From contig OY762007.1 of the NCBI GenBank assembly GCA_963665115.1, forward strand, positions 6,400,001-6,464,000: DNA of 64,000 nucleotides, written 5' to 3'. Shown piece after piece: positions 1-45,832 of the stretch. The stretch is from an uncultured Rivularia sp. (GTDB lineage Bacteria > Cyanobacteriota > Cyanobacteriia > Cyanobacteriales > Nostocaceae). The translations under genes were made by a program, and so were the position numbers. Numbering within the stretch: position 1 is the first letter of the stretch; each line of letters begins with the position of its first letter. The notes below the pieces were generated by a model. It saw nothing but the letters and a program-made list of their open reading frames with translations. It did no database searches and had not been told where the DNA came from.

Positions 1-1062
1 TGACGGACGATACAAACCGAACTGACCGGCTTGAAAATCAAATTTATATGAAGGGTCATTCAATGGTACTTTTGTAATCACATTTACTGTACCACCCAAG
101 TCACCTTGTCCAAATAGAACTGAAGCAGGTCCTTTAAGGATTTCAAATCTTTCTACATTGGTTACTTCTGAAAGAGTTCCTAAAGTTGTATCTCGCAAGC
201 CATTTCTCAAAGTATTTTTACTTTCAAATCCGCGAATTACCGGGGTAAGGGCTGGAGCATCGGAAGCGACACGTCCTGTTGTTACTCCTGCACTGTTACG
301 TAGCGCGTCTCCCAAGCTCGTAACCCCCTGCTCCTCAAATACTTGTTCGGGAATGGCTTGAATGGACTGGGGTACGTTAATTACGGGAGTATCGGTTCTC
401 GTTCCTACGGAAGATTCTATGATTCGATATCTTGTGGGTGCGCTACCCGTAACTACTAATTCAATTACATCGTCTTCTGTTGGCTGTTGCGTTGCTTGAG
501 TATTATTTTCTTGAGGGATGGAAGGTGGTTGTGGCGTTTGAGCATTATTTTCTGAAGGAGTTGTTTGAGCATTCGTACCTTCCACCGGCGAAATTCCCAG
601 AATAAATTCTTGTCCTTGAGTTCTGGGTGCTGTCGCTTTTGGTGGCGCACTTTGTCCGGTAATCTCAACGCGAACACCGCTACCATCAATATTAGTTACT
701 TTAACTGATGCAATTCCCGCGAGCGGATTAACTAATTCAAATCGATTACCTTTTGGCAATTCCAATACCGCATTCGGAATATCGGTAACAACTGCATTCC
801 CAACAGTAGTAGTTTTTCCGGGTTTGAGCAACTGCGGGTTTGGCGTTTTGAGAACTACTTCTATACCCGCATCTGTTTCATAAAGTTCCACAGCAGTAAC
901 TTTAATTTGACTATTGGGAGAAGTTGATTGAGCAAGTAAGGAAGATTCAATTACTGGATTAAGGGCTGTTTCTGTTTTTTCCTTTGCCCATGCTGGAGCA
1001 ACAGCAATTATACTAACGGTGCTTATCAGCCATACATTGATAAAAAATAACTGCTGCTTCAT
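1..1062 (-). CDS. TonB-dependent siderophore receptor with N-terminal AMIN domain (5' part; runs off the window's left edge)
   Basis: Translated by hand (absent from the ORF track because there is no stop in the window). ATG at 1062 with GAGGA upstream; signal-like MKQQLFFINVWLISTVSIIAVAPAWA; AMIN-like VKVTAVELYETDAGIEVVL; TonB-box-like IELVVTG; plug motifs GTRTDTPVINVPQSIQAI, IRGF and VERFEILKGPASVLFGQGDLGGTVNVITK. Confidence 0.93.
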   Translation of the reverse strand, partial: MKQQLFFINVWLISTVSIIAVAPAWAKEKTETALNPVIESSLLAQSTSPNSQIKVTAVELYETDAGIEVVLKTPNPQLLKPGKTTTVGNAVVTDIPNAVLELPKGNRFELVNPLAGIASVKVTNIDGSGVRVEITGQSAPPKATAPRTQGQEFILGISPVEGTNAQTTPSENNAQTPQPPSIPQENNTQATQQPTEDDVIELVVTGSAPTRYRIIESSVGTRTDTPVINVPQSIQAIPEQVFEEQGVTSLGDALRNSAGVTTGRVASDAPALTPVIRGFESKNTLRNGLRDTTLGTLSEVTNVERFEILKGPASVLFGQGDLGGTVNVITKVPLNDPSYKFDFQAGQFGLYRPS

Positions 1063-1253
1063 CACAATATCCTCAAAACGTGACATTTTCTCTACAAAGT
1101 TTTCGGTTGATTTAACAAACTATATAAGGTAGTCGTTGATAAATTTCAGATTGTTAAGATGCACAAAAATCAGAATCACACAATGAATTTAGTCAAATAA
1201 TTTACCTGCATCGGCTAATTTCGATTAACCTTACACCCTAAGATAGATTAACT

Positions 1254-1420
1254 GGCGTTGCTGATTAAAAGTATGAATTGCCCCCTAGCCCCCAATTATG
1301 GGGGAACAAGATGATTAAAAGTCCCCCAGTACCCCCTTGCATTGGGGTCACGGGGGCAGGGGATTTAGGGGACATCACTATGAAGGAAAAAATAAATTCA
1401 TACCCAGATTCAGCAACGCC
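1254..1420. mobile_element. 167-bp MITE (non-autonomous IS derivative, IS1-like ends) with 8-bp target-site duplication
   Basis: Left end GGCGTTGCTGA-ttaaaa-GTATGAATT matches the reverse complement of the right end GGCGTTGCTGA-atctgg-GTATGAATT. GATTAACT is directly repeated at 1246-1253 and 1421-1428. No transposase ORF inside. Confidence 0.88.
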
Positions 1421-1821
1421 GATTAACTATTGCCTGTTTTTAATACTTTAGTTATAAGCTTGCTTTGTCAAGCACCTTTGATAGCATCTGAATTTTTGTT
1501 ACACTCTGTAAATTAATATGGCTTTACTCCCTTTTGGGGACGATATTAAACAATTTTGGGAAAAATTGGTTCAAAAAGCTTATTAACAATAGTTGCATAA
1601 AAAGGCAGTTAGCAGATATATTTAGTTATACTAAACTAAGAAATTTTACAATCAGTGCCAAAAAAGTATTATTTGGTTGTTGCTTGAAGTGAATTTATTA
1701 TTTTCGTTATGAGACAAGCTAGTAATTTCAAAAACAGATATAAATAAAGATTGTATAATCTTTTACGCATTTTTACGAATAAAAGTTGTATTATAACGAT
1801 TCAACACAAAACTATATTAGT

Positions 1822-1843
1822 TAATTGAGAATATTTTTTATTA
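1822..1843. promoter_or_regulatory. Putative Fur-box-like operator upstream of the biosynthetic operon
   Basis: TAATTGAGAATATTTTTTATTA about 40 bp before the ATG at 1884. The left half TGAGAAT fits the Fur 7-1-7 consensus and the right half is degenerate. Support comes mainly from the iron-uptake context. Confidence 0.35.
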
Positions 1844-1883: not shown

Positions 1884-4800
1884 ATGTCTACAGATTTCCC
1901 GGCATTTTCTACAGTGGTTGATTTGATGCAGTACCGCTCGAATCATCAACCCAAACAACAAGGTTATATTTTTCTGGCAGATGGCGATCGCCAGGAAAAT
2001 TCGCTTAACTATAGAGAAACTTGATACAAAAGCGCGAGCAATTGCTGCTCATCTCCAGAGTTTAAATACGATTGGAGAGCGAGCATTATTATTGTATCCG
2101 CCGGGGTTAGAATTTATTGCCGCTTTTTTAGGATGTTTGTACGCGGGTGTTATAGCAGTTCCCGCTTATCCACCAAGGAAAGGGCAGAGTTTGCTCAGGG
2201 TGAAATCTATTGCAGCAGATTCAAGCGCAAAGATTGTATTGACGACTCAATCTTACGCTGATTTTATAGAATCCCAACAAACAGCAAATTTAGCAAATGT
2301 AAAATATGTCATAGCAACTGATAATTTACCCCAAGATTTAGCCGCAAATTGGCAAAAGCCTGCAATTAATGCCGACACTTTAGCTTTCTTACAATATACC
2401 TCTGGCTCTACTGGAAATCCCAAGGGTGTAATAGTGAGTCACGGTAAATTGCTGTATAACGAACAAATTATCAAGCAAGGATTTGGGCATACCCAGGATA
2501 CTACGGTTGTCGGTTGGTTGCCTTTTTATCATGATATGGGACTGATAGGGAATGTATTGCAACCACTGTATTTAGGAATTTGCTCTATTTTAATGCCACC
2601 TGTAACGTTTCTCCAGAAGCCTATACGTTGGTTACAAGCAATTTCTGATTATAAAGCAACTACTAGTGGCGCTCCCAATTTTGCCTACGAGATGTGTTTG
2701 CAAAAAATTACACCTGAGCAGCGAGCAAGTTTAGATTTGAGTTCTTGGGAAGTGGCTTTTTGTGGTGCAGAAACAATTCGTGTTGAGACTTTAGAGAGGT
2801 TTGCTGAAGTATTCGCTGAGTGTGGATTTCGGAAGGAAGCATTTTATCCTTGTTATGGTTTAGCTGAAGCAACATTATTTGTCAGTGGTGGTGAGAAAAC
2901 GGAAGACTATAAAGTATGTCATGTTGAATCCAAAGCTTTAGCAGAAAATCGGATTGAATTATCAACAGATAACCTAACCCCCCAACCTGGGGAGAATAAA
3001 GAAAAATTATCAGATACCGCAATAGTTAGTTGTGGTAGGGTTATAGCGCAAGAAGTTGTCATAGTTAACCCAGATGATTTGTTACCTTATTCTGAAAATC
3101 AAGTCGGAGAGATTTGGGTAAGGGGGGAAAGTATTGCTCAAGGTTATTGGGGAAAAATTAAAGAAACAGCAGAAGTTTTTAAAGGGAAGATAGCGGGTGT
3201 TGAGGAAAAATGCTATTTACGCACGGGGGATTTAGGATTTATCAGGGAAGGGGAATTGTATATAACTGGAAGAATTAAAGATACGATTATTATTCGAGGT
3301 TTAAATTATTACCCGCAGGATATTGAGTTGACGGTAGAACAAAGCCATCCTAGTTTACAACCGGGATGTGGTGCTGCTTTTGGTGTGGAAATTGCCGAAA
3401 GAGCGAAAGAAGAGGGGTTGGTGATAGTTCAGGAAGTTAAGCGAGAAGGTTGGCGGAGTGTTGATGTTGATAGTGCGATCGCATCGATTCGTGCGGCGGT
3501 TTCGCAGCATCATCAGCTACAGGTTTATGCAGTAGTTTTGCTGAAGCCGGGGAGTATTCCGAAGACGACGAGTGGTAAAATTCAAAGGTATGCTTGTCGT
3601 GCTGGTTTTGGAAATGGTAGTTTGAATGCAATTGGTGAGTGGCAGGTTGAAGAGAGCAGAGGGAGCGGAGGAAGCAGAGGAAGCAGAGGAGAAGGAAATG
3701 AGGAATCTAAAATTCGTGCGGATGAGTTGATTGTTTGGCTGAGGGAGTATGCGAGTAGTTATATTAATTCGCGTTTGATTGATGAGCGTCGCTGTATTCC
3801 TCCTCATATTGTTTTGGATTTTGGCAATCGGGGATTGTTGGGAATGCAGGTTCCTGGTGAATACGGTGGTTTGGGATTGGGAAATTATGACACGATGCGG
3901 GTGTTGCAGCAGTTGGGAGCGATTGACACTACTTTATCGCTGTTTGTGGGATTAAATAATATTTTAGGGATTCGTCCGATTTTGCGCTACGGTAGCAAGG
4001 CTTTGCAGGATGAATTATTGCCGATTTTGGCGACGGGAAGAGAATTAGCAGCTTTTGCAATTACTGAGCCTGGTGCTGGATCTAATCCTCAAGGGATAAC
4101 TTCTCAAGCAATTCCTGATAATGGTGGTTGGAGGTTAAGCGGTACAAAGATTTGGAGTGGATCTGCTGCTTGGGCTGGAGTTACGAATGTGTTTGTACGG
4201 CATCAAAATAATGATGGAAGCTGGCAGGGTATTAGCGGTTTCGCTGTGCGAAAAGGTACGGGATTGCGTCAGGGTAAAGAAGCTTTGACAATGGGAATGC
4301 GGGGGATGGTGCAAAATACCGTTTACCTGAATGATGTGGCTGTGAGTGCAGAGCAGATGTTGGGTGAACCTGGTGCTGGAATGCAGGTAGCGCAAGATGC
4401 AATGATGTATGGAAGATTGGCGATCGCCGCTGCGAGTGTGGGAGGAATGAAGCGCTGTACTCAATTAATGTTGCGTTATAGTTCTCGTCGTTCTATTTCG
4501 ACAGGAAAGTTATTAGAGAATCCTTTTGTACTCAAGCGCTTAAGTGAAATTACTGCTGCGATAACTGCTGTCGAAAATTTAGTTTCTCAAGTTGCTCGAC
4601 GATTAGATGCAGGAGAAACGATTCCCCCGGAGATATATACAGCTTGTAAAACTGCTGCTCCCGAATTTTATTGGCAAGCTGCTGATAGTTTAGTACAAGT
4701 ATTGGGTGGACGTGGTTATATTGAAACTAATATAGCGCCACAGATTTTACGAGATGCCAGAATTTTACGTATTTTTGAAGGACCTACAGAAACATTAAAT

Positions 4801-5883
4801 ATGTTTTTAGGTTCAAGAGCGATTCATGAAAGTGACAGTTTGGCAAGTTTTATTAGTGAAAGTTTTCAAGCTCCGGAAGTAGCTGAGAAGTTGCAAGCAG
4901 CAGCTCTTCAAATTTATGGGGAAACCTCACCCCGTCCTGACGGACACCCCTCTCCTTATCAAGGAGAGGGGAAAGCTTCACCCTCTCCTGATGGACACCC
5001 CTCTCCTTACCAAGGAGAGCAGTGCGTTGCGGAGGTTCCCTCCGTTGAAGCAACTGCGGAAGAGGGGATGGGGGTGAGGTTATCTGCGAGTCGTTATGCT
5101 GCGATACTTACAGGTGAAATAACAACTTTTGCGATTCTTTGGGCTGCGTTACATCATACCCAAATAGATTCACCTTCCGAGTCAATTACTAGCGCTATAG
5201 AATGGGTAAAATTTCATTTTGAAGAAAAACTCAGACAAGCTCTATTAAATTCCCAACCTAAAGTTTTATCTTCCGAAGAAAATACCGAATTAATATCTGG
5301 TTACATTGATAGTATCGGCGATATAGAACAAACCCTACCGGGAGAAGATTGGGAATTAGACGAATATTTGAAAAAACAACCTGGGGAGACGTTATATATA
5401 ACGTCTCTACATAACTCCTCAGATCCCTCTACCCCCTCTACCCCCTCTACCCCCTCCACCCCCTCTACCCCCTCTACCCCCTCTACCTCCTCCGCTCCAA
5501 AATCTTCCTCAATCCAAACCTGGCTAATCGACTGGTTGAGTCAGAAATTAAAATTACTTGAAAACAGCATAGATATAAATAAATCTTTTGCTGACTATGG
5601 GATTGATTCAGTGATTGCTGTGGAATTGGCTCAGGATTTACAGGAATGGTTGAATTATCCCCGTGCTATTGAACCCACTATTGCCTGGAATTTTCCTACA
5701 ATTGAATCATTGAGTAATTATCTGGCTCAAACTTTAATCCAAGAAACTTCACTCGATAATCAACCCGAGGAAATTGAACTCCCGTCAGAAAATTCATCAG
5801 ATTTAGAGTCAATGTCTGATGTGGAATTAGCGGAGTTACTCGCAGCAGAAATTAATGCAGTTAAGGGGAGGGGAAGCGAATGA
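1884..5883 (+). CDS. Starter enzyme: fatty acyl-AMP ligase (FAAL) - acyl-CoA dehydrogenase - ACP; +1 frameshift at ~2017-2019
   Basis: Upstream frame from ATG 1884 reads MSTDFPAFSTVVDLMQYRSNHQPKQQGYIFLADGDRQENSLNYRE and joins LDTKARAIAAHL if one A of GAGAAAC is removed. FAAL motifs LQYTSGSTGNPKG, WLPFYHDMGLIG, YGLAEATL, LRTGDLG; ACAD motifs AFAITEPGAGS, LGGRGY, RIFEG; ACP motif YGIDSV. Confidence 0.92.
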
Positions 5884-8800
5884 GTCAGAATGATGCAAAA
5901 ATTGATTATCGTTCGCTGCTGCAAGACGCACTGACAGAAATGCGTTCTTTACGGGGTAAGTTAGAAGCGGAAAAACAAGCCAAAACCGAACCAATTGCAA
6001 TTATTGGAATGGATTGTCGGTTTCCCGGTGGTGCAAATTCTCCGGAAGCTTATTGGAAATTATTACGAGAGGGAATTGATGCAATTAGTGAAGTTCCGAG
6101 GGAACGTTGGTTAATTGATGACTATTACGATTCCGATCCAGATGTTCCGGGGAAAATGTATACTCGTTACGGTGGATTTATTGATAATGTAGATAAATTT
6201 GACCCGCAATTTTTCGGTATATCTCCTCGGGAAGCAACACAAATGGACCCCCAACAGCGTTTGTTGTTGGAAGTTAGTTATACAGCTTTAGAGCGCTCCG
6301 GTCAAAGCGTTCAAGAATTAAATGGCAGTCATACAGGGGTTTTTGTTGGCATCAGCTTCGATGATTATGCTAAATTCAGCCTTAATTCTGGTGACGTTAA
6401 TCGTATTGATGCCTACAGTAGTTTAGGTAATACCCGCAGTATCGCCGTAGGACGTTTATCTTATGCATTAGGTTTACAAGGCCCGACAATGCAGTTAGAT
6501 ACAACCTGCTCCTCTTCTTTACTAGCGACTCATTTAGCTTGTCAGAGTCTGCGTAGTGGTGAATCCAATTTAGCCTTAGCTGGTGGAGTCAGTTTAATGC
6601 TTTCCCCAGAAGCAACTATTGGTTTTTGTAAATTGAAAGCATTAGCACCAGACGGACGTTGTAAAACCTTTGATGCGAATGCTAATGGTTATGTGAGGGG
6701 AGAAGGATGCGGGATTATTGTACTCAAACGACTTTCCGATGCAATAAGTAATAAAGATAATATTCTTGCTGTAATTAAAGGTTCAGCAGTTAACCACGAC
6801 GGACAAAGCAATGGTTTAACCGCTCCCAACGGTTCAGCACAAGAAAATGTAATTCGACAAGCTATAAAAAACGCTCAAGTCAAACCACTACAAATCCAAT
6901 ATGTAGAAACCCACGGAACGGGTACAAGTTTAGGAGATCCAATCGAAACCCTAGCGCTAGGGAAAATACTCGGTGAAGGTAGAAGCGAAGATAACCCCCT
7001 GACAATTGGTTCCGTCAAAACCAACATCGGACATTTAGAAGCAGCAGCGGGAGTTGCGAGCATAATTAAAGTAACCCTAGCGCTAGGGAATAAACAAATT
7101 CCTCCCCATTTACATTTTCAGAAACCGAATCCTCATATACCTTGGTCAAGACTACCGATTAACGTTCCTACCGAACTTACACCTTGGAATGTTGGTAGTG
7201 AAGAAAAGCGTTTAGCTGGGATTAGTTCCTTCGGGATGAGCGGTACGAATGCTCATGTGGTAATTGAAGATGTAGAGACGTTATACATAACGTCTCCCCA
7301 GCAATCAGAACACACCACCGAACGTCCTCTGCATTTACTGACATTATCGGCGAAGACAGAGCAAGCGTTATCGGAACTTGTAACGAATTACCAAGAATAC
7401 TTGACAAATAATAGTGATGTGAATTTTGCGGATATTTGTTTTAGTGCAAATATAGGGCGATCGCACTTTCAACATCGCTTGAGTATCGTTGCTGAATCTA
7501 CATTTGAAGCAATAGAAGAATTATCAAATTACCAAGAAACCTCACCCCGCGCTTACGCGCACCCCTCTCCTTATCAAGGAGAGGGGAAAATCTCAACCGG
7601 CTTTGAACACCCCTCTCCTTACCAAGGAGAGGGGATGGGGGTGAGGTTATTTCAAGGTGTAACATCTACAAATAAACGTCCTAAAATCGCTTTTCTATTT
7701 ACCGGGGAAGCTAGTCAATATATAAATATGGGTTGGGAATTATATCAAACTCAACCAACTTTTAAACAAGCTTTAAATGAATGCAACAAAATACTAAAAT
7801 CATTATTTAATCTAGATTTATTAACTCTTATTTATTCCTCAAAGGGAACGGGGAATGGGGAACAGGAAATAGGGAATCATTCTAACCCAATGCCCAAAAC
7901 CGCAATATTCGCCATACAATACGCTCTATATAAATTATGGAAATCTTGGGGTGTTAATCCTTCGGTATTAATTGGAGATGGGGTTGGGGAATATGTTGCT
8001 GCTACGGTTGCGGGAGTTTTCTGTTTAGAAGATGCATTAAACTTAGTTGTAAATCTTGCTAAGACTGAATTTGATAAAGTAGCAAATTCAATCAAATACT
8101 CTTCACCACAAATTGAGATAATTTCTGGTATTAACGGTAAATTAATTAATTCAGAAATTACAAATTCACAATATTGGTGTAGCAAGATTTCCTTGGCAGC
8201 AAGCTTTGAAAAAATTATTGATAAACTCAAAGAAATTAATTGTGATATTTGTTTAGAAATAGCATTAGAATCCGCAAATTTATTATCAAATGAAATATTA
8301 TTTTTACCAAGTTTCGGAGAAGAAAGTAATAATCATCAAGATTGGCAAGTAATGCTTTCAAGTTTGGCTCAGATGTATGTCAATGGAGTTAATATTAATT
8401 GGCGTGGTTTTGAGCAAGATTATTCTCGAAATTGTGTTTTATTACCAACTTATCCGTTTCAACGTCAGCGCTATTGGATTGAAGCTCCCAATGTTAAAAA
8501 CTTTCACAACATAAATTCGGAAAGTCTACATCCATTATTAGGACAAAGAATTGATATTGCAAATTTAGAAACGATTCATTTTGAAAATCTAATAAATCAA
8601 GATAATCCTGCTTATTTACAACATCATCAAGTATTTGATACGGTAATTATGCCGTTTTCGGGTTTTGTGGAAATGGTATTAGCTGCTGCTAGTAATCTGT
8701 ATGAAACAAAAGCTGAAATAAAAAATCTGTTATTAACTGATGTAGAAATTCATCAAGCTTTGATTTTAGAAAAAAGTTCTACAACAGTACAATTAATTCT

Positions 8801-27731: not shown

Positions 27732-27821
27732 CGCCTGTGAGGGCTTACTGCATTGTGGGGCAATGTATGTATTGGAAATAATTATTATTCCGTAAAGTTA
27801 TTTTGCTTAGAGAGAGTCAGA

Positions 27822-28574
27822 ATGTCTATATCTCGTTATGATTTTGATGTCCTTTGGGTTAGCAGTAGCCCTTCTTTGAGAACTTTTAGTATGCCTCTGA
27901 TAAAAACATTGTCAAGGCATACAAAGATTGCAGGATGGGATTATTTTCAGTCTTTGGATGAACCTGCTTGTATGGATACGGCAGTAGAGTTATTACATAA
28001 ATACTTGAAAACCAAGCAATTTCCGATCCATTTGATAGGTCATGGTATTGGTGGTACGATTGCATTAATGTTTGCTCGTAAATACCCTGAATTTGTTAAG
28101 TCATTAACCTTACTTGCAGTAGCCGCACAACCTGCAAATACCTGGCACGCATATTATTATCAACAACGTCGAATCTATTCTCTGAGTAAAGCAGAAGCTT
28201 TATTGAATACTATTCATAATTTATTTAGAGAAGAAGCAATTCCTTATCCACACAAATTAATTAATCAATTTAATAAGGATTTGAATAATTTACCTTTGAT
28301 GCACTCAATATTCGATATAGAACAACTACCTATAGGCGGTGTTTCTATGCCATTAATGATATGCGGTGGTCAAGTAGATCCTATTTTAAGTTATCTGGAG
28401 TTATACAAGTGGAAGAAATGGTTAAAACCTGAAGATATTATATGGAAATGTCCTCAAGGTAGTCATTTTTTCCATTCTTTTCACCCAGATTTAGTTTCTC
28501 AAGAAATATGCAAATTTTGGGGAATAAAACAGAATCAAACTCGACAAGAAAATTTTGTTAAATATCAAATATAA
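27822..28574 (+). CDS. Alpha/beta-hydrolase-fold protein resembling cyanobacterial iron-starvation protein IsiC
   Basis: Probable start ATG 27822, in frame with ORF 27753. Motifs DVLWVSSSPSL, WDYFQSLDEPACMDTAVELLHKYL, HLIGHGIGG, PANTWHAYYY, GSHFFH. The IsiC resemblance is from recall, not a search. Confidence 0.7.
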   Translation: MSISRYDFDVLWVSSSPSLRTFSMPLIKTLSRHTKIAGWDYFQSLDEPACMDTAVELLHKYLKTKQFPIHLIGHGIGGTIALMFARKYPEFVKSLTLLAVAAQPANTWHAYYYQQRRIYSLSKAEALLNTIHNLFREEAIPYPHKLINQFNKDLNNLPLMHSIFDIEQLPIGGVSMPLMICGGQVDPILSYLELYKWKKWLKPEDIIWKCPQGSHFFHSFHPDLVSQEICKFWGIKQNQTRQENFVKYQI

Positions 28575-28661: not shown

Positions 28662-28689
28662 AAACTCCTAGCGATAAGACTAGGAGTTT
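28662..28689 (+). terminator. Stem-loop, possible terminator or processing site between the hydrolase gene and NRPS1
   Basis: AAACTCCTAG-cgataaga-CTAGGAGTTT, a perfect 10-bp stem followed by T-rich sequence. Confidence 0.45.
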
Positions 28690-28807
28690 CTATTTAGTTA
28701 ATAATAAAACAAGTATAATGATTCTTAAAATCAGTGCAGTCACAGAATTGTTATAAGAAAATGTTTTAAAAGTCGAACTTTCTAACAATGGGGAAGCGGA
28801 AATTGAC

Positions 28808-36700: not shown

Positions 36701-39700
36701 AAATCGTAAAATTGACCAAAAAGCTTTACCAATACCAGATGACATAAACCAAATATCAAATAAAACGCCAAGATATATTCCACCACGTACCGTTACTGAG
36801 GAGATAGTAGCTGGTATTTGGGCTGAGGTGTTGAATTTACAACAGGTTAGCATTGACGATAATTTCTTTGAATTGGGAGGACATTCTTTACTCGCAACCC
36901 GCGTCAATTCTCAAGTCAGACAAGCTTTTGCTGTAGAATTACCATTGCGATCGCACTTTGAAAAACCTACTATCACAGAACTTGCGATTTGTATCGAAAC
37001 AGCTACCCGAAAATCAGTAGCACCACCGATTGAACCCGTCCCTCGTGAAGGAAATTTACCTCTATCCTTTGCTCAACAACGACTGTGGTTTTTATGTCAG
37101 TTAGAATCCGATAGTCCCTACTATAATATCCCCGCAGCCGTAAGGTTAACTGGCTCGCTCAATATTGACGCTTTAAAACAAAGTTTAAATGATATTGTAC
37201 GTCGTCACGAAACTCTACGCACGGCGTTTTCAACTGTTGACGGACAACCCACACAGCAAATTCATGCGGTTGATTCGCTACCTTTTTCAATTATTGATTT
37301 AAGTAATATTGATGAATCAACACGGGAAACTAAAATCGAGGGATTAGCGCGAATTGAAGCAATGCAATCCTTTAAACTCGATAGTAGTCCTTTGCTGCGA
37401 GTGAAATTATTACAGTTAAGCGATACAGACCATGTAATTTTACTTACTTTTCATCATATTATTGCCGACGGCTGGTCAATTGGGGTTTTGGTGCGAGAAT
37501 TAGGCATTTTGTATCAAACATATCTTCAAAAACCTAACCCCCCAACCCCCTTCCCTACCAGGGAAGGGGGAGAAGTCAAAGCCTCTCGCCTTGTAGGAGA
37601 GAGGTTTTTTAATTCACTATCACAATTACCAATTCAATATGCCGATTTCGCTGTTTGGCAAAGAGAATGGTTACAAGGGGAAGTATTAGAAAATCAACTG
37701 AATTATTGGCAAGAGCAGTTACAAAGTGCGTCAATCTTGTTAGAATTGCCTACAGATTATCCACGTCCTGCTGTTAGAAGTTTAAGAGGAGATAGCTACA
37801 CTTTTCAAATTTGTCTAGAATTAACCGCAGCCCTGAAACGCTTAAGTCAACAGTCAGGTTGTACTTTATTTATGACGCTGTTAGCAGCTTTTCAAACTTT
37901 ACTTTATCGCTACACGGGTAATGAGGATATAGTTGTTGGAACCAGCATTGCTAATCGTAATTATCCGGAAATTGAAGGGCTAATTGGCTTTTTTGTCAAT
38001 ACTTTGGCATTGCGAACTGATTTATCAGAAAATCCGACTTTTGAGGAATTATTGAATCGGGTACGAGAAGTTTCGTTAGGTGCTTACGCTCATCAAGATT
38101 TACCTTTTGAACAACTTGTAGATAGTTTACAACTCCAACGTTCTTTAAGTTATACTCCATTATTTCAAGTGATGTTCGTGCTGCAAAATGCGCCAATGGA
38201 AGCTTTAGAAATTGAAGGTTTGCATTGGGAACCCCTTGAAAGTAATAGTAGCACTGCAAAGTTTGATTTAACTTTGTCAATGCAGGAAACTTCAGAAGGT
38301 TTGACAGGAGTATTGGAATATAGTTTAGATTTATTTGATTTAGAAACTATTGAGCGAATCGCAGGAAATTATCTAAGTTTATTAACAGCAATTATTGATG
38401 AACCAGAGCAGCAAATATCTGAGTTACCGATTTTAACTACATCGGAACAGCAATTACTTGAGGAATGGAATCAAACCACAATAGAATATCCGCGAGATAA
38501 ATGCGTGCATCAACTATTTGAGGAACAAGTTCAACAAATACCGAATAGTACAGCACTTGTTTGGCAAAATAAAGAATTAAATCAAAAACTTACATATGAT
38601 GAATTAAATATCAGAGTTAATCAACTAGCTCATCATCTCATAGGCTTAGGAGTCAAACCACAAACACCAGTTGGTATTTATATAGAACGTTCCCCAGAAG
38701 CTATTATTGGCATATTAGCAATTCTTAAAGCAGGAGGAATTTATGTTCCTTTAGATCCAGCATATCCCCAAGAACGGTTAACTTTTATGTTGGAAGATGC
38801 TGGGGTAGAATTTTTGATTACAGATTCTAAAACCTCACAAACCTCACCCCCAGCCCCTCTCCTTAACAAGGAGAGGGGAAAAGAATTCACAACCCCTCTC
38901 CTTAATAAGGAGAGGGGTGATAAAGCGCAGCTTTATCGGGGTGAGGTTATTAATCTTGATAAGAATTGGGAAATAATTAATCAAAATAGTGCTAAAAATC
39001 CTATTGAGTTACTAACACCAGAAAACTTAGCGTATATCATGTACACTTCTGGATCAACCGGGATACCAAAAGGGGTTTGTACAACACATCGAGGAATTGT
39101 CCGCTTAGTCAAATCGAGTAATTACGTTAATTTAAGTGCAGAAGAAATTATTTTACAAGCTGCGCCAATTTCCTTCGACGCTTCCACATTTGAAATTTGG
39201 GGTGCTTTACTCAACGGAGGAAAATTAGTTCTTTTACCAACTCAAAAACCTTCATTAAAAGAGTTGGGAGAAACATTAGAAAAATATCATATTTCAACTC
39301 TGTGGTTAACAGCAGGTTTATTTCATCTAATGGTAGATGAACAACCCCAAAGTTTAAAAAGTGTTCGACAATTATTAGCTGGTGGAGATGTCATATCACC
39401 AATTCATGCTCAGAAACTACAGCAAATCCATCCAAACTGTCAGTTAATTAACGGTTATGGTCCTACAGAAAGCACAACATTTGCTTGCTGTTATTCTGTT
39501 CCTAAAAATCACCCAGCAGACAAACCAATACCAATAGGTTATCCAATTTCTAACACCCAAGTTTACATTTTAGATAGTCATTTACAACCCGTTCCTATAG
39601 GTGTCCCCGGTGAATTATATATTAGTGGTGATGGTTTAGCTCGTGGTTATTTGAATCGTGCAGAATTAACCGCAGAAAAATTTATTCCCAACCCGTTTTT

Positions 39701-41822
39701 TGAAGGCAGAAGGCAGAAGGCAGAAGGCAGAACAATGCCCAATGCCCAATGCCCAATGCCTAAATTATATAAAACTGGTGACAAAGTTAGTTATCGGATG
39801 GATGGTGCGATTGAATACCTCGGTCGTTTCGATAATCAAGTTAAAATTCGGGGTTTCCGAGTTGAATTAGGAGAAGTTGAAACTGCTTTATCTCAACATC
39901 CGCAGGTTCAAGAAGTTGTTGTCATTGTACAAAATCAAGACAATATTCAAAGGTTAGTTGCTTATTTTGTACCAGTTGTATGTAGAGACGAGATAGATCG
40001 CGTCTCTTCTAATAATTTAGGAAGTTTTTTAAGCGATAAACTCCCAGAATACCTCATTCCTTCCATCTTTATATCTCTCCCAGAATTACCTCTTACAGCT
40101 AACGGAAAAGTAAATCGTCGCGCTCTTCCTAATCCAGATATTATCACCTCAGAAGATGAATTTGTAACTCCCACAACTCCAATTGAAACAGCACTCGCAC
40201 AAATTTGGGTGGATATTTTGCGACTTGAAAAAGTAGGAATTAACGACAACTTCTTTGAATTAGGGGGAGATTCAATTTTAGCAATTCAAATTATTAGTCG
40301 CGCTAATCAAGCGGGAATTCAAATTACACCAAAACAGTTATTTCAACATCAAACTATCGCTGAACTAACAACTATCGCAACTCAAACCCCGTTAATAAAA
40401 GCCGAACAAGGAATTATTACAGGTTTTGTTCCCCTTACACCGATTCAACATTGGTTCTTTGAACAGCAAAAATCAAATCCTCATCACTTCAATCAAGCTG
40501 TTTTACTCAAAGTTAAAACCAAGCTCAATTTAAACTGGTTAGAACAAGCATTGCAAGAATTATTATTACATCATGATGCATTTCGACTGCGATTTGAGCA
40601 AACCGAATCTGGTTGGAAACAGTTTCATACCGAACCATTACCAGAAGTTCCTTTTACCTGTTTTGACCTTTCTAAACTCACAGATTCACAGCAACAAAAT
40701 GCAATTACAAATGTCGCCAATCAAATCCAGAAAAGTCTCAATTTTTCAACAGGTTCAGTAATACGAGTTGCATTATTTAACTTAGGTGAAAATCAAGCAA
40801 GTCGCTTACTATTTGTAATTCACCATTTAGTAATTGACGGCGTTTCTTGGCGAATATTATTATCAGACTTACAAACCGGATACGAACAACTAAGTCAAGC
40901 AAAAGCAATTCAACTCCCATTGAAAACCACTTCATTTAAACAATGGGCAGAACATTTGCAGACATATGCAAATGACCTCTCCCTAACCCTCTCCTACAAT
41001 GAGAGGGAACAAGATTCAAAGTCTCTCGACCATGCCGAGAGAGATTTCCCCAACACAATTGCTACCAACGAACAAATAGAAATTGTACTTTCCTCAGAAC
41101 ACACCCAAGCATTATTAAAAGAAGTTCCGACAACATATAACACCCAAATTAACGACATATTACTAACAGCTTTAGTTAAAACATTTGCTCAATTGACAGG
41201 CAAATCATCACTTTTAATTGATTTAGAAGGACATGGAAGAAGCGAATTATTTGAGAACCTTAACTTATCCCGCACAATTGGTTGGTTCACAAATATAGTC
41301 CCAGTCAACTTAGATTTAGGAGAATTAGCAGATATTAATAATCTAGAAGAAGCAATCAAATGCATCAAAGAACAATTACGTATACCTAACAATGGTATAG
41401 ATTATAGTGTATGGCGATATCTTAAAGAAAATAAAAACCAGAATTTTGAATTAACAAAACCTGAAATTAGCTTTAACTATCTAGGACAATTCGACTCGAT
41501 GTTAGCAACATCAAACGTATTTGAATTAGCACAAGAATCACTCGGCTTAACCCAAGATATCAACTCAGAAAGACCATATATACTAGAAATTAACGGTTCA
41601 ATAATTGAAAAAAAACTTAAATTTACTTGGACTTATAATAAGCATTTTTACGATAAATCGCTAATAGATAATTTAGGCGAAAAATATCTAGAAACACTAA
41701 TAAAATTAATCGAACATTGTCAATCTCCTGAAGCTAGTGGTTACACACCCTCAGATTTTTCTTTAGCAGAAATTGAGCAAAATCAATTAGATGATATTTT
41801 AGCGAGAGTTGATTTTGAGTGA
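33759..41822 (+). CDS. NRPS 2: C(DCL) - A(Gly) - PCP - C - A(Val-like) - PCP - E - COM donor; no thioesterase
   Basis: N-terminus IDLYELSPMQQGMLFH (post-epimerase C); HHLLMDG; A1 code about DILQLGLIWK (Gly); PCP GGHSL; C HHIIADG; A2 code about DAFWLGGTFK (Val-like); PCP GGDSI; E HHLVIDGVSW; C-terminal GYTPSDFSLAEIEQNQLDDIL. Confidence 0.94.
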   Translation: MDNIIDLYELSPMQQGMLFHSLYSPESGIYFEQRNCKLKGNLNISAFKTAWQKVIERHTILRTAFYWEEVEKPLQVVHKQVDLSWIEENWQDFIINQQNDKLEEFLQADRQQGFDLNQPPLMRCALLQIQTSEYYFVWSHHHLLMDGWCNGILLKEVFSFYQAAISGKSLFLPHPRPYRDYIQWLQQQDIALSKKFWRDKLKGFIAPTPLIKDSRTVTYQQDIVSEQQIQLPIKLTTDLQNLAQENRLTLNTISQGIWAILLSRYSGENDIVFGATVSGRPPNLPGVESIVGLFINTLPVRVNLSGDKELLPWLQQLQTQQIEQESFSYSSLIDIKQWSDVLPGVGLFESLVIFENYPVSIDAVLQGWSDDLQITQAKGFERTNYPLSLTVIPGAELSLRINYDSNRFESATITRMLGHLETLLQGIVTNPQQKPWELPLLTAIEKQQLLVDWNDTNCDYSNLCIHQLFAAQAEKTPDKIAVIFESQQLTYKELNQKANQLAHYLKSVGVEEETRVGICLERSEKMLVGLLGILKAGGTYIPLDPAFPEERLTFMLEDSGVNFLITDSRISPLTPLLVKEKGKESETPLLDKERGDKAVLYRGEVINIDNDWELIEKQSSGNLAIQTTPEDLAYIIYTSGSTGKPKGVQIMHKSLVNCLESMQQKPGITSNDVLLSVTTLSFDIAGLELYLPLITGAILIIASRETATDGIRLAQSIETNQATIMQATPATWRLLLTAGWKGNRQLKVLCGGEALDINVAEELLKRSKEVWNLYGPTEATIWSSVTECRDVKFNVSQNVPTSVPIGKPVNNTQFYVLNDYLQPVPIGVPGELYIGGTGLAKGYLNKPELTAQKFIPNPFSYSTPSSLSTPSSPSNLYKTGDSVRYLPDGNLEYLGRIDYQVKLRGFRIELGEIEAVLIQHSLVKQAVVTLYKNQDDEKLIAYVVPSSEISQTELRQFLQGKLPAYMIPSSYIMLEEFPLTPNRKIDQKALPIPDDINQISNKTPRYIPPRTVTEEIVAGIWAEVLNLQQVSIDDNFFELGGHSLLATRVNSQVRQAFAVELPLRSHFEKPTITELAICIETATRKSVAPPIEPVPREGNLPLSFAQQRLWFLCQLESDSPYYNIPAAVRLTGSLNIDALKQSLNDIVRRHETLRTAFSTVDGQPTQQIHAVDSLPFSIIDLSNIDESTRETKIEGLARIEAMQSFKLDSSPLLRVKLLQLSDTDHVILLTFHHIIADGWSIGVLVRELGILYQTYLQKPNPPTPFPTREGGEVKASRLVGERFFNSLSQLPIQYADFAVWQREWLQGEVLENQLNYWQEQLQSASILLELPTDYPRPAVRSLRGDSYTFQICLELTAALKRLSQQSGCTLFMTLLAAFQTLLYRYTGNEDIVVGTSIANRNYPEIEGLIGFFVNTLALRTDLSENPTFEELLNRVREVSLGAYAHQDLPFEQLVDSLQLQRSLSYTPLFQVMFVLQNAPMEALEIEGLHWEPLESNSSTAKFDLTLSMQETSEGLTGVLEYSLDLFDLETIERIAGNYLSLLTAIIDEPEQQISELPILTTSEQQLLEEWNQTTIEYPRDKCVHQLFEEQVQQIPNSTALVWQNKELNQKLTYDELNIRVNQLAHHLIGLGVKPQTPVGIYIERSPEAIIGILAILKAGGIYVPLDPAYPQERLTFMLEDAGVEFLITDSKTSQTSPPAPLLNKERGKEFTTPLLNKERGDKAQLYRGEVINLDKNWEIINQNSAKNPIELLTPENLAYIMYTSGSTGIPKGVCTTHRGIVRLVKSSNYVNLSAEEIILQAAPISFDASTFEIWGALLNGGKLVLLPTQKPSLKELGETLEKYHISTLWLTAGLFHLMVDEQPQSLKSVRQLLAGGDVISPIHAQKLQQIHPNCQLINGYGPTESTTFACCYSVPKNHPADKPIPIGYPISNTQVYILDSHLQPVPIGVPGELYISGDGLARGYLNRAELTAEKFIPNPFFEGRRQKAEGRTMPNAQCPMPKLYKTGDKVSYRMDGAIEYLGRFDNQVKIRGFRVELGEVETALSQHPQVQEVVVIVQNQDNIQRLVAYFVPVVCRDEIDRVSSNNLGSFLSDKLPEYLIPSIFISLPELPLTANGKVNRRALPNPDIITSEDEFVTPTTPIETALAQIWVDILRLEKVGINDNFFELGGDSILAIQIISRANQAGIQITPKQLFQHQTIAELTTIATQTPLIKAEQGIITGFVPLTPIQHWFFEQQKSNPHHFNQAVLLKVKTKLNLNWLEQALQELLLHHDAFRLRFEQTESGWKQFHTEPLPEVPFTCFDLSKLTDSQQQNAITNVANQIQKSLNFSTGSVIRVALFNLGENQASRLLFVIHHLVIDGVSWRILLSDLQTGYEQLSQAKAIQLPLKTTSFKQWAEHLQTYANDLSLTLSYNEREQDSKSLDHAERDFPNTIATNEQIEIVLSSEHTQALLKEVPTTYNTQINDILLTALVKTFAQLTGKSSLLIDLEGHGRSELFENLNLSRTIGWFTNIVPVNLDLGELADINNLEEAIKCIKEQLRIPNNGIDYSVWRYLKENKNQNFELTKPEISFNYLGQFDSMLATSNVFELAQESLGLTQDINSERPYILEINGSIIEKKLKFTWTYNKHFYDKSLIDNLGEKYLETLIKLIEHCQSPEASGYTPSDFSLAEIEQNQLDDILARVDFE

Positions 41823-42059: not shown

Positions 42060-43742
42060 ATGAATAATCACCGTCAGCTATGGGGAAAATTCTGGAAGGT
42101 GAGTAAACCTTATTGGTTTTCTCAAGAAAAACCAGGTGCTATAGCTTTATTGTCACTTCTAATACTTCTTTCGATTAGCAGCAGTAGTTTTTTAGTAATA
42201 GAAACCATACAAAGAGGAGAGTTGGTTTCATCTTTAGCAGCTAAGGATTCCGATAGATTTTTAAGAACAATGCTGCTGCTATTTGGTATCATTATTGCGA
42301 CGATTCCGTTAATTTCGTTTAAAACTTACGTTCAAGGTAAATTAAGTCTACATTGGCGTAGATGGTTAACTCATAGTTTTTTGCATCGCTATTTTGATAA
42401 GCTCAATTTTTATCGGCTCAATTTTTCTGAGTCAATAGATAATCCAGATCAGCGTATTGCGGAAGATATTAATAGTTTTACCCAACAGTCTTTATTTTTA
42501 TTAACTATTTTATCTGATTCGATTTTACAGTTAATTTTGTTTAGTGGTGTTTTATGGGCAACTTCGCCAATTTTAATGCTTGTTTTGATTATTTATGCTG
42601 TGGGAGGAACCCTGATTACAACTTTAGTCTTTGGACGTAAATTAGTAGCTATAAATTTTAAACAACTCAAACGAGAAGCTGATTTTCGTTTTGGTTTAAT
42701 TCGGGTACGAGATAATGCTGAATCAATTGCTTTTTATCGCGGACAAAATCAAGAATTTAGTCGAGTTAAGCAGCGCTTTGTGAATGCGTTTCAAAATTTC
42801 AATAATTTAATTCGCTGGCAATTTGGCTTAACTATATTTCAGAATGGCTATCAATATATTAACTTTGTCTTGCCATTTATAATTCTTGCACCGCGAATTT
42901 TTACCGGAGATTTAGAGATTGGAGCAGTAACGCGATCGCAAGCAGCTTTTGAGAGGATTGGTTTTGCTCTAGGCTTGATCATAAATCAGTTTGAGAAGTT
43001 GAGCGCTTTGAGTGCAGCAGTCGATCGGTTGTCAACTTTATCTGAGTTTGCACAAAGCAATGAATCTTTACCGGAGCCAGTAAATACTAATATTCTCATT
43101 CGAGAAAGTCCCGATTTAGATATCAATCATCTTACCGTTCAAATTCCTGAAACCAGTAAAACTGTAGTAAAGGATTTATCAGTTAGCGTTAATAGAGGTG
43201 AATCTTTACTAATTATGGGTGATAGTGGGGTTGGTAAAAGTTCATTACTACGTGCCATCGCAGGATTATGGAATTTTGGTAGTGGAAATATTCATCGACC
43301 AAAACCAGAAGATATATTATTTTTGCCACAAAAACCTTACATGATTTTAGGTTCTTTACGCCAGCAACTTTTATATCCTTATTTACACAAACAAATTAGC
43401 GAACCAGAACTAATCGAAGCTTTAAATATAGTTAATCTATCAAAAATAGCAACTAAATATCAAGATTTGGATACGATTGAAGACTGGTCGCAACTACTTT
43501 CTATTGGAGAACAACAGCGTTTAGCTTTTGCTCGCTTACTGCTGACAAAACCCAATTATGCAATCTTAGATGAAGCCACAAGCGCCTTAGATGAAACAAA
43601 CGAAGAGCAGCTTTATCAACAACTTCAAAAAACAGGAATCGCCTATATTAGCGTCGGTCATAATCCTCAATTATTAAAATATCATCAACAAGTACTAGAA
43701 ATAAAAAATCAACAACAATGGAATTTATATCCAAGTAAATAA
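42060..43742 (+). CDS. ABC half-transporter (fused permease-ATPase, ABCD/YddA/McyH-like)
   Basis: [14 protein letters not shown]-like RDNAESIAFYRG, Walker A GDSGVGKS, signature LSIGEQQR, Walker B ILDEATSALD. Confidence 0.93.
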   Translation: MNNHRQLWGKFWKVSKPYWFSQEKPGAIALLSLLILLSISSSSFLVIETIQRGELVSSLAAKDSDRFLRTMLLLFGIIIATIPLISFKTYVQGKLSLHWRRWLTHSFLHRYFDKLNFYRLNFSESIDNPDQRIAEDINSFTQQSLFLLTILSDSILQLILFSGVLWATSPILMLVLIIYAVGGTLITTLVFGRKLVAINFKQLKREADFRFGLIRVRDNAESIAFYRGQNQEFSRVKQRFVNAFQNFNNLIRWQFGLTIFQNGYQYINFVLPFIILAPRIFTGDLEIGAVTRSQAAFERIGFALGLIINQFEKLSALSAAVDRLSTLSEFAQSNESLPEPVNTNILIRESPDLDINHLTVQIPETSKTVVKDLSVSVNRGESLLIMGDSGVGKSSLLRAIAGLWNFGSGNIHRPKPEDILFLPQKPYMILGSLRQQLLYPYLHKQISEPELIEALNIVNLSKIATKYQDLDTIEDWSQLLSIGEQQRLAFARLLLTKPNYAILDEATSALDETNEEQLYQQLQKTGIAYISVGHNPQLLKYHQQVLEIKNQQQWNLYPSK

Positions 43743-43877
43743 AATATTTAGGGAATAGGGAATAGGGAACAGGGAATAGACAACAAGGGATTATCACAAT
43801 AAACTACTCCTATCTCTCTTATTTTCTTCCTCTGCGCCCTCAGCGTCTCTGCGGTTTTTTTCTCAGTAATCTTACTC

Positions 43878-45572
43878 ATGAACAATAAATTCGACATTAA
43901 ACTCCTACAGCAATTTTGGAAAGTAGCAAAACCTTACTGGCTTTCTTCCGAAAAATGGGGAGCTATAACTCTTTTAATCTTATTAATTATCCTATCAATA
44001 ATTAGCACGGCATTACTATTAATAGTTAGTATTTTCCTAGGAGAAGTAACCACATCCTTAGCACAACAAAATCAAGAAGTTTTTATCCAATCCGTAACAA
44101 TTTTTATTGGGATAATAGTAATTGGCGTACTTTTACTATCTTTAAAAAGCTACATCCAAGCTAAACTTTCGCTTTACTGGCGACGCTGGTTAACCTATCA
44201 TTTTCTTAATAAATATTTTGACCGTCAAACGTTTTATCGCTTTAGTTTTAATCCCGAAATAGACAATCCCGACCAACGTATAGCTGAAGATATAAAAACT
44301 TTTACCCTTCAAGCAGTCAACTTTTTAATTATTCTTCTTGATTCAGTACTACAACTAATTGGTTTTGTGGGAATTTTATGGGTAACATCAATACCATTAA
44401 CGCTATTTTTAGTTGGCTATGCTGTTTTCGGAACCGTAATTACAACTATTTTATTTGGTCGAATTTTGATTCAAATTAATTACGAGCAACTTAAATATCA
44501 AGCAGATTTTCGCTACAGCTTAACTCGCGTTCGGGAAAATGCCGAAGCTATTGCTTTTTATCGAGGAGAAAATTCCGAATCGAATCAAATTCAGTCGCGT
44601 TTTGGGTTAGTTTTAACCAACTTTAATCGGTTAGTTAATTGGCAATTGAGATTAAATTTATTTCAAAATAGCTATCAATATATTACCTTTCTTTTACCAG
44701 CCGTTATTCTTGCTCCCCGTATTCTTTCTGGAGAATTAGAAGTAGGAGCATTTGCTAAAGCTGGTGCAGCTTTTAGAAGTATTTTGTTGGCTTTAACTTT
44801 AATTGTGACGCAGTTTGAAGAATTAAGTAACTTTGCAGCAGGAATTAACCGCTTAGAAAGCTATGCAAAATTTGCACGTACCGCACATAAAATTCCTCCA
44901 GAAGCATCAATTATTGATTTTAGAGAAGATAACTTTTTATCTACCCGTAATTTAACTTTGTATACTCCAGACTATCAAACCAGTTTAGTAAAAGATTTAT
45001 CTCTCACCGTTAATAGGGGTGAATCATTATTAATTGTCGGTGCTAGCGGTGTAGGAAAAAGTTCTTTGCTTAGAGCTATGGCTGGTTTATGGTATTGTGG
45101 AGATGGTTCTATTATCCTTCCTCCTCAAGAAACAATACTATTTTTACCCCAACGTCCCTACATAATTTTAGGTTCTCTACGCGAACAACTTTTGTATCCC
45201 CACCAGCAAGAATTTACAGACGAACAATTATTACAAATGCTAGAAAAAGTGAACTTACCTTTAATTGGTAATAAAATTAGTAGTTTGGATACAATCGTAG
45301 AATTTAATAAAATACTTTCAATGGGAGAACAACAACGTCTTGCTTTTGCTCGGTTACTGCTTGCTCAACCACAATATGCTGTTTTAGATGAAGCTACTAG
45401 TTCCCTAGATGTTAGAAATGAAAAATTACTTTACAGTCAATTACAGCAAACCGATATTACTTACATCAGCGTTGGTCATCGTTCTACTTTGGTAGACTAT
45501 CATGACTCAGTTTTACGAATTAACAATGACCGCAGTTATAATTTAATGTCGAAACAACAATATAGCCATTAA
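43878..45572 (+). CDS. Second ABC half-transporter, paralogue of the preceding gene
   Basis: [49 protein letters not shown]. Confidence 0.93.
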
Positions 45573-45655
45573 AATTATAAAGACGTAGCAATGCTACGTC
45601 TCTACATTATTTGGTGGTGAAAAAGGTAGATGCATAAATAATCAAACTGATTCAA

Positions 45656-45832
45656 TTACTTTTTCTTAGTGGCGATCGCTAACTTCGCACCCTCTACCTG
45701 TCGCACTTTATCCATAACCGCGACAATTTTTCCATGATTCACCGCTTCATCAGCATTCAACACCACCATTAAAGGCTGTTCGGGTTTGACTTTTTCTTTC
45801 ACCCCTGCTTCTAATTTATCTAAAGTAATCTT
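45656..45832 (-). pseudogene. exbD: 3' remnant of ExbD/TolR-family biopolymer transport protein
   Basis: KITLDKLEAGVKEKVKPEQPLMVVLNADEAVNHGKIVAVMDKVRQVEGAKLAIATKKK matches the ExbD periplasmic C-terminus. The N-terminal TM segment is absent; the upstream part of ORF 45656..45991 is just the antisense of the dGTPase. Confidence 0.82.

Follow-up and report, generated by a model that had tools for sequence, protein, structure and literature searches.

What does the long line of polyketide synthase (PKS) and non-ribosomal peptide synthetase (NRPS) genes in this DNA of an uncultured Rivularia sp. make, and is the line complete? The window, a stretch of 64,000 nucleotides, covers positions 6,400,001-6,464,000 of contig OY762007.1; negative coordinates are genome positions minus 6,400,000. 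The original prediction had described an orphan cluster with no canonical chelator-forming enzyme in view. However, a matching biosynthetic arm was found 38-93 kb upstream of the window on the minus strand, carrying a Cy and an Ox domain, an FbnL/FbnM-type protein pair, a reductase, a methyltransferase and an aminotransferase, and the monooxygenase of the window is itself FbnE-type. Judged from gene content, the window probably (about 0.7) holds the first arm of a two-armed PKS/NRPS cluster of ~140 kb, its arms divergent and ~38 kb apart, which likely makes one iron-repressed lipopeptide siderophore of the fabrubactin/anachelin (Dmaq) family.

Pfam and motif scans of the open reading frames (ORFs) in the window gave the following features.

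1..1086, minus strand: 5' part of a TonB-dependent siderophore receptor gene with AMIN domain (886 aa, extending 1574 bases beyond the left window end)
1820..1838, minus strand: FurA-like box upstream of the FAAL gene (4 mismatches here, 2 in Calothrix parasitica NIES-267, genome G401)
1884..5883, plus strand: FAAL-ACAD-ACP loading protein (Pfam; frame break near 2018)
5880..13619, plus strand: PKS1, KS-AT0-DH-cMT-ER-KR(Tyr>His)-ACP (Pfam and motifs)
13616..21362, plus strand: PKS2, KS-AT0-DH-cMT-ER-KR(Tyr>His)-ACP (two ORFs, 13616-18814 and 18792-21362; frame break near 18777)
21355..26335, plus strand: PKS3, KS-AT(malonyl-type, intact)-KR(altered nucleotide loop)-T (two ORFs, 21355-21807 and 21626-26335; break near 21753)
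26436..27500, plus strand: luciferase-like, stand-alone flavin monooxygenase of the MupA/Atu3671 family, FbnE-type (TIGR04020, tree)
27753..28574, plus strand: IsiC-like alpha/beta hydrolase, accessory (Pfam; absent at the equivalent place in G401)
28808..33657, plus strand: NRPS1, C-A(Asn)-T-E (ORF 28808-33415; E cut by a frame break near 33390)
33759..41822, plus strand: NRPS2, C(D-acceptor type)-A(Gly)-T-C-A(Val)-T-E, without release domain (Pfam, code alignment)
42060..45572, plus strand: two fused ABC transporters, ABC_membrane_2 (Pfam; orthologues also beside the G401 cluster)
45656..45829, minus strand: exbD 3' remnant (residues 85-141 of the 141-aa protein of G401)

The collinear domain line reported earlier, from FAAL-ACAD-ACP through C-A-T-C-A-T-E, was recovered in the ORF listing and the scans, as were its flanks from the TonB receptor (354 bits against a TIGR01783 cut-off of 223.5) to the two ABC transporters and the exbD remnant. 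The ORF of the loading protein is 1981-5883, its true start being an ATG at 1884. The ordinary HHxxxDG motif claimed for all three C domains was read as HHLIADG, HHLLMDG and HHIIADG. By alignment the A-domain codes are DATKIGEVGK, DILQLGLIWK and DAFWLGGTFK, which, by code-to-substrate tables, should select Asn, Gly and Val. The acyl-D-Asn-Gly-D-Val start proposed in the original prediction stands as a prediction, but it covers only three of the ten amino-acid modules. No thioesterase (TE) or reductase was found at the end of the window arm, where the last domain is an E domain, so this arm cannot release a product by itself; NRPS2 is predicted to hand its chain to a Gly module 38 kb upstream of the window.

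Upstream, the module order is Gly, PKS, Ala, Cys(Cy,Ox), Gly, D-Ala, Ser, DOPA/Tyr and CmlA-reductase.

-3102..-1786: major facilitator superfamily (MFS) gene, between the receptor and the surface-protein array
-38258..-4269: PPC/Calx-beta-like surface-protein genes, ~34 kb
-41624..-38346, minus strand: C-A(Gly)-T
-51079..-46429, minus strand: PKS4, KS-AT-KR-T (two ORFs)
-58782..-51287, minus strand: C-A(Ala)-T-Cy-A(Cys)-Ox-T (three ORFs; Cy motif DVLMGDAWS)
-67143..-59010, minus strand: Gly and Ala-E modules (two ORFs)
-70661..-67290, minus strand: Ser module
-71607..-70696, minus strand: 2-oxoglutarate (2OG) oxygenase, 2OG-FeII_Oxy_3
-76015..-72430, minus strand: module with code DAPTLGAVNK, DOPA/Tyr (two ORFs)
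-79158..-76093, minus strand: CmlA-type hydroxylase fused to a thioester reductase
-85145..-84291, minus strand: methyltransferase
-86698..-85204, minus strand: class III aminotransferase (two ORFs)
after the aminotransferase and before the two small proteins: MbtH gene
-88321..-87854 and -88989..-88416: two small proteins, FbnL/FbnM-type pair (the second one broken)
between the small-protein pair and the tyrosinase: MFS gene
-91527..-90307: tyrosinase
-92465..-91728: type II thioesterase

The Ox domain of the Cys module, as read in an intact orthologue, is of the nitroreductase type. The set of a Dmaq tail is present in this arm, namely a terminal DOPA/Tyr module, a thioester reductase (TIGR01746, 357 bits against a cut-off of 213), a methyltransferase and an aminotransferase. 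The CmlA-type motifs THNHQDH, GEH, ADS and MECDG align with PDB 8A90, and we take them to be the metal ligands. Next to the NRPS genes stands the FbnL/FbnM-type pair, recognised by its orthology to a pair in NIES-267, by an SfmD match and by its identity to the pair of an Agrobacterium-type cluster. The second small protein, which is FbnM-like, resembles SfmD, a haem tyrosine hydroxylase, over the C-terminal half of the latter (E 2.7e-9 for the whole protein of a relative, 1.6e-4 for the fragment in the source genome) and is 50% and 45% identical, in two pieces, to the Agrobacterium-type FbnM; the FbnL-like protein is 26% identical to FbnL. According to PMC12971057, FbnL and FbnM are a two-protein haem peroxidase that starts Dmaq synthesis. 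The 2OG oxygenase was considered as an Asn/Asp hydroxylase, an assignment left unsupported, and it is missing between the same genes in G401. Inserted with it between the Ser and DOPA modules is the gene of a 233-aa protein (locus L005:7687-8388, minus strand), whose only Pfam match is below cut-off (ATLF, 26.1 against 27.4 bits) and which is also absent there in G401.

Do the two arms form one assembly line? The Val-E gene stands immediately before the Gly module gene in genomes G059, G376, G403 (Nodularia chucula) and G312, three of which show a 4-base overlap, and the codes of the modules read match in all four. G427 has the FAAL gene, receptor, MFS gene, Gly module and PKS4 all within 20 kb. 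A plasmid of Gloeocapsa PCC 7428 bears both halves across its origin: all 26 proteins taken from its cluster match one arm or the other, and the assembly-line and tailoring proteins are mostly 43-79% identical to those of the source genome. Its second receptor matches at only 27%, its aminotransferase and MbtH protein have their top single match by score in another cluster of the source genome (with higher identity in this one), and its module string differs slightly, with no separate Gly gene and another second residue. NIES-267 shows the identical two-arm layout, with every biosynthetic gene intact and 75-95% identity. In a quick tree the C domain of the Gly module groups, at 100% support, with the two C domains located after E domains, and the C-terminal tail of the NRPS2 E domain resembles those of other hand-over proteins.

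The antiSMASH table of Reitz et al., in the rows listed, contains the NIES-267 region with FbnL 143 and FbnM 283, whose orthologues are 83% and 88-93% identical to the source-genome ones; it flags the back arm as a metallophore region and gives the front arm as a separate, non-metallophore one. Co-occurrence points the same way. An orthologue of the stand-alone monooxygenase at 66% or more was found in 10 of 400 other genomes of the phylum, and all ten have an FbnL-like gene, against none of 18 genomes with weaker monooxygenase matches and four of the remaining 372, although kin among these are not independent. The ACAD was found at 71-73% in eight of the ten (the search covered those ten and two weaker ones).

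An alternative is a window arm that functions independently and yields a short acyl-D-Asn-Gly-D-Val lipopeptide, freed for example by the adjacent hydrolase. The distance between the divergent arms and their separate antiSMASH regions in NIES-267 would fit this, as would the hydrolase gene itself, which lies inside the window arm and beside the monooxygenase in G415, G416 and G423. At the equivalent place, however, it is absent from G401, G059, G376, G403, G312 and Gloeocapsa, and the arms are contiguous in the four genomes named above. Together with an arm that ends in an E domain with a hand-over tail, this makes independent release highly improbable.

The monooxygenase of the window scores 521 bits against a cut-off of 244 for TIGR04020 (MupA/Atu3671 family). 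Fabrubactin, of A. fabrum C58, was compared via the same-type plasmid cluster of A. tumefaciens AF1/95; the window enzyme is 62% identical to the stand-alone enzyme of such Agrobacterium plasmid clusters and in a quick tree of 86 rows belongs to a 99%-supported clade of 38 stand-alone enzymes, including those of Rhizobiaceae, apart from all fused rows. Its identity as FbnE was taken from the family name (Atu3671), the gene order and the tree. The Agrobacterium-type order is monooxygenase, PKS, FAAL / NRPS-R, methyltransferase, aminotransferase, MbtH, two small genes and PKS, which appears to fit the published letters FbnE for the monooxygenase, FbnG for the FAAL and FbnL/M (PMC12971057, PMC11837247). 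FbnE has been proposed to form both alpha-hydroxycarboxylates of fabrubactin (PMC12971057), and all 15 Dmaq-only regions in one survey carry fbnE homologues (10.1101/2022.12.14.519525).

The two Agrobacterium PKSs match PKS3 and PKS4 best, the first of them pairing with PKS3. Instead of GGLGGLG, the KR nucleotide loops of PKS3, PKS4 and the Agrobacterium PKSs read GDLIEGLG, GDLVGGLG, GELLEGLG and GNIAEGVG, and the KR of PKS4 has also lost its HAAG motif. The combination of a stand-alone FbnE-type monooxygenase with two KS-AT-KR-T modules, as in fabrubactin-type clusters, is present. A Favorskii-like rearrangement has reportedly been described for fabrubactin; a text search for an FbnE rearrangement in the literature covered found no paper.

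On the proposed pathway, a fatty acid would be loaded by the FAAL and desaturated by the ACAD, and PKS1 and PKS2 would extend and C-methylate the chain, their dead acyltransferases (ATs) being replaced in trans, probably by the intact AT of PKS3 or PKS4 or by FabD. A malonyl unit added by PKS3 would then be converted by the FbnE-type monooxygenase to an alpha-hydroxycarboxylate. D-Asn, Gly and D-Val would follow, and the chain would pass from the E-terminated NRPS2 to the upstream Gly module, after which PKS4 and the same monooxygenase would make a second alpha-hydroxycarboxylate. Ala, a thiazole, Gly, D-Ala, Ser and DOPA (from Tyr by FbnL/FbnM) would be added next, the CmlA domain perhaps introducing a beta-hydroxyl group. 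The chain would then be released reductively, transaminated, N-methylated and closed oxidatively into the ring of the Dmaq catechol, and the adjacent TonB receptor would take the iron complex back up. The predicted product is a branched acyl-(hydroxyacid)-D-Asn-Gly-D-Val-Gly-(hydroxyacid)-Ala-thiazole-Gly-D-Ala-Ser-Dmaq, six-coordinate for Fe(III), since two hydroxycarboxylates and one catechol would fill six sites. The original prediction had suggested that the product may be an amphiphilic metallophore whose ligands come from the monooxygenase or from modules beyond the window, and with the upstream arm an amphiphilic metallophore drawing ligands from both is likely.

Several points weigh against this reading. 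The product, its metal binding and its iron response are predicted from genes alone. The fbn letters were given by the gene order of the Agrobacterium-type cluster and not by aligning C58 proteins, and the alpha-hydroxycarboxylate chemistry of FbnE is a proposal known second-hand from PMC12971057. MupA, of the same family, is a plain alpha-hydroxylase (PMC10952193). The KRs of PKS3 and PKS4 retain their catalytic Ser and Tyr. The closest solved structure to the monooxygenase in the PDB is PuwE (393 bits), presumably another plain alpha-hydroxylating enzyme, and the FbnL-like protein has no meaningful PDB match. No FbnM match was found in three of eight same-genus genomes with a monooxygenase orthologue. 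The link to Anabaena PCC 7120, described below, consists of one protein accession and a published gene order, and is indirect. Finally, two of the three genomes without an FbnM match, G423 (contig C330) and G427 (C221), contain both arms along with the CmlA-reductase, yet gave no match for the methyltransferase or the aminotransferase either. These genomes are near-complete (95% and 99%) and consist of 410-560 contigs. The absences may be loss or missing contigs, and a non-Dmaq variant would be expected if they are real.

Some of these points would suit one undivided assembly line, again with a Dmaq end, in which the monooxygenase only alpha-hydroxylates beta-keto thioesters, the KRs then giving diols, and iron is bound mainly by the catechol and thiazole. 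PuwE as best structural match and the intact KR residues agree with it, and MupA hydroxylates ACP-bound beta-keto substrates ahead of KR reduction (PMC10952193). Against it stand the grouping of the monooxygenase with the Agrobacterium stand-alone clade, the altered KR loops shared by PKS3, PKS4 and the Agrobacterium PKSs with the HAAG loss in PKS4, and the fbnE homologues in the 15 Dmaq-only regions surveyed. We consider plain hydroxylation rather unlikely and prefer the line with two alpha-hydroxycarboxylates.

The acyl tail of this line has features of its own. The catalytic Ser is missing from the ATs of PKS1 and PKS2 (GDGVG, ADGIG), whose match to the Pfam model of 319 positions covers only about positions 2-115. 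All four PKS1/PKS2 ATs of the source genome and G401 have lost the Ser, and nine of nine counterparts from five other genomes retain it; the loss implies loading in trans. The anachelin cluster, too, has been described as containing a PKS whose AT is inactive (PMC4247773). In both KRs, as in all 13 PKS1/PKS2 orthologue KRs, the catalytic Tyr is replaced by His, so the reduction state of the tail is uncertain. This replacement was rejected as a unique feature: it occurs in unrelated PKSs, being found in 19 of 160 KR motifs among 120 listed proteins, three of the 19 coming from this protein or its close orthologues.

Is the cluster functional? Compared with G401, the biosynthetic genes contain 11 frame breaks, all insertions of one or two bases and mostly in homopolymers. 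Contigs of four runs of one study (X1-X4) were compared over 14001-33500, covering three of the 11 breaks. X2 and X3 are without the extra bases at 18777, 21753 and 33389, with no other letter differences in the listed long contigs, and X4 lacks them at 33389, the only break it covers. X1, which may be the source data of the assembly, retains the extra base at 21753 and one of the two at 33389; at 18777 its contigs leave a gap. The breaks are likely sequencing errors, because they are short insertions, mostly in homopolymers, because X2, X3 and X4 lack the extra bases at the breaks they cover, and because an argD-like aminotransferase gene in the window is split likewise.

A decaying region that makes nothing would also account for frameshifts, dead ATs and a broken exbD: the breaks are many, X1 retains part of the extra bases, and exbD is truncated with exbB gone from its spot. 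The nature of the insertions, the X2-X4 contigs and the split argD-like gene speak against decay, the AT Ser loss is common to the intact G401, and further exbB/exbD pairs occur elsewhere in the genome. A pseudogene region is very unlikely, and we retain a working two-armed cluster. G401 has a whole exbD-exbB where the window has the remnant. On the opposite strand this remnant adjoins a fragmented, 5'-truncated dGTP triphosphohydrolase gene (window 45656-47094), the junction being either a deletion or a misjoin.

The evidence for iron control consists of predicted binding sites, scored against the published FurA consensus. Of the Fur-like boxes claimed in the original prediction, the one at 1820 was retained: it has four mismatches, a site quality also reached in 84 of 1349 GC-matched windows of 800 bp and weak alone, and two mismatches at the aligned place in G401. 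The site before the hydrolase gene (five mismatches) was not above chance. A better box lies at -84249, 84.2 kb upstream and just before the tailoring operon; it is among only three sites in the genome with at most two mismatches, and its counterpart in G401 has three. The IsiC-like label of the hydrolase agrees with its paralogues, found directly before flavodoxin in four of seven other-genome loci examined and at the second copy in this genome; this gene context is the only support for the label. Further FurA-like boxes with 3-4 mismatches occur 26251, 21497 and 5892 bases upstream of the window.

Between and beside the arms lie large PPC/Ig surface proteins with a Calx-beta/LapA-like repeat (atlas matches of 0.90-0.92 point to Calx-beta/LapA). 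The repeat gave 34 merged matches in the genome, one query including a beta-lactamase-like part: 29 are in the cluster span, three beside a second candidate siderophore cluster and two elsewhere, with locations at 6,316,500-6,395,700 (83.5 to 4 kb upstream of the window) and near 6,116,000. It was seen at all six full-length cyanobacterial orthologous clusters examined and not at the Agrobacterium-type, Acaryochloris and G206 loci. Another surface protein (DUF4347/DUF5122/cadherin/RTX repeats) is encoded at window 47181-56595 on the minus strand by ORFs of 451 and 2673 aa, which probably represent a single gene interrupted by a frame break.

What this adds is neither new chelator chemistry nor a new class of system; the value is a testable structure for an unsolved siderophore. 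A September 2026 preprint counts 24 known cyanobacterial siderophore structures and gives the second siderophore of PCC 7120 as uncharacterised (10.64898/2026.07.24.740629), and in the literature searched, with most subscription papers outside its reach, the structure of this family's product was not found. The reconstruction offers a module-by-module prediction with three named chelating groups, testable in an easily grown model strain. It also points to a practical trap, as wide separation of the arms leads to the front one being classed as a non-metallophore NRPS region. More tentatively, the line might encode that unsolved second siderophore of Anabaena PCC 7120 and related strains. It would be a lipopeptide that seeks membranes, its tail desaturated and bearing two methyl branches, with two monooxygenase-made alpha-hydroxycarboxylates, a thiazole and a beta-hydroxylated Dmaq of a kind yet to be found in any compound. 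In this lineage PKS1 and PKS2 would have switched from their own ATs to trans loading, and the Calx-beta-like adhesin array accompanying the cluster would help to mine iron from surfaces.

Which known system is closest? The iron-regulated PKS/NRPS region of PCC 7120 named in the original prediction is probably linked, indirectly, through gene order and a monooxygenase orthologue. In PCC 7120 the nine genes all2649-all2641 and alr2679/alr2680 are FurA targets (PMC4005646, PMC4788461), and deletion of the cluster removes most siderophore production (review PMC6562677). Calteau et al. (PMC4247773) regard the cluster of Nodularia CCY 9414 as orthologous to the siderophore clusters that PCC 7120 and A. 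tumefaciens C58 carry; those of CCY 9414 and PCC 7120 they place in CF-19, 'Uncharacterised siderophore'. The published labels all2635 (PKS), all2647 and all2650 (ABC) (PMC4390870) fit the order in G059, as does the PCC 7120 arrangement as a whole, with a block of seven NRPS and two 'PKS' genes, all2635 PKS, all2650 ABC and alr2679/80 PKS. The nine-gene block is also present in N. chucula, and G059 and N. chucula have the module string of the source genome. The gene set and module string were found in N. chucula, G059, G376 and G312; for PCC 7120 they were compared through the published gene order and one accession, the monooxygenase orthologue BAB74352.1 (77% identical), which we take to be a PCC 7120 chromosome protein. 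All2649 of PCC 7120 was not among the best 120 of 3545 NRPS1 homologues. Most likely the cluster belongs to CF-19, by this indirect link. It differs in the ~34 kb of surface-protein genes that split the arms, in the lost AT Ser of PKS1/PKS2 and in the added tyrosinase, 2OG oxygenase and hydrolase genes.

The fabrubactin-type cluster of Agrobacterium shares the FAAL, two KS-AT-KR-T PKSs with altered KR loops and the stand-alone monooxygenase (62%). Module for module it shares Gly, PKS, Ala, Cys-Cy, Gly, Ala-E and the terminal DAPTLGAVNK, followed by the reductase, the methyltransferase (43%), the aminotransferase (45-57%), MbtH and the FbnL/FbnM-type pair. The source genome adds the ACAD, two reducing and methylating PKS modules and D-Asn-Gly-D-Val; its Ser module has its own A domain, and its reductase is on a separate protein, fused to the CmlA-type hydroxylase. 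Fabrubactin itself was rejected as the product, given the extra ACAD, two PKS modules and three amino-acid modules. Its family is said to be widespread in cyanobacteria; A. fabrum was not found among the listed rows of the eLife supplement.

Anachelin, compared by description and not by sequence, shares the Dmaq-forming set (reductase, methyltransferase, aminotransferase, tyrosine hydroxylase), a D-residue then Ser before Dmaq, and a PKS with inactive AT (PMC4247773). It differs in its salicylate start and Thr-D-Ser-Ser, and was rejected, the starter here being FAAL-ACAD-ACP, with no salicylate synthase among 44 scanned proteins (not every small ORF). Dmaq-type tails were also seen at G206:C1 335,000-387,000, with one PKS, a monooxygenase and different modules, and in an Acaryochloris plasmid cluster with chorismate-binding and aryl-CoA ligase genes.

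Cyanochelins, lipopeptide siderophores with beta-hydroxy-Asp, share the FAAL start, a flavin monooxygenase domain, a thiazole/thiazoline module and an AMIN-type TonB receptor (PMC12628792, 10.64898/2026.07.30.741596). On the cyanochelin B plasmid the monooxygenase occurs as a PKS fusion, at 48% identity. A cyanochelin, including cyanochelin A, was rejected, as an Asp-type code occurs in none of the ten modules and no TauD-type hydroxylase in the scanned proteins. A second candidate siderophore cluster of this genome (~6,069,000-6,114,000) is cyanochelin-like, with a FAAL, PKS, NRPS with Ser, Gly and two Asp-type A domains, a TauD dioxygenase, a reductase, an aminotransferase and a penicillin-amidase-family acylase. 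A third NRPS locus (~542,000-562,000), with two Cys-type A domains and an AMIN TonB receptor, is a candidate for a thiazoline-type metallophore. Distinct from fabrubactin, anachelin and the cyanochelins, the two-armed cluster would work like the Dmaq siderophore clusters and by its gene content belongs to their family.

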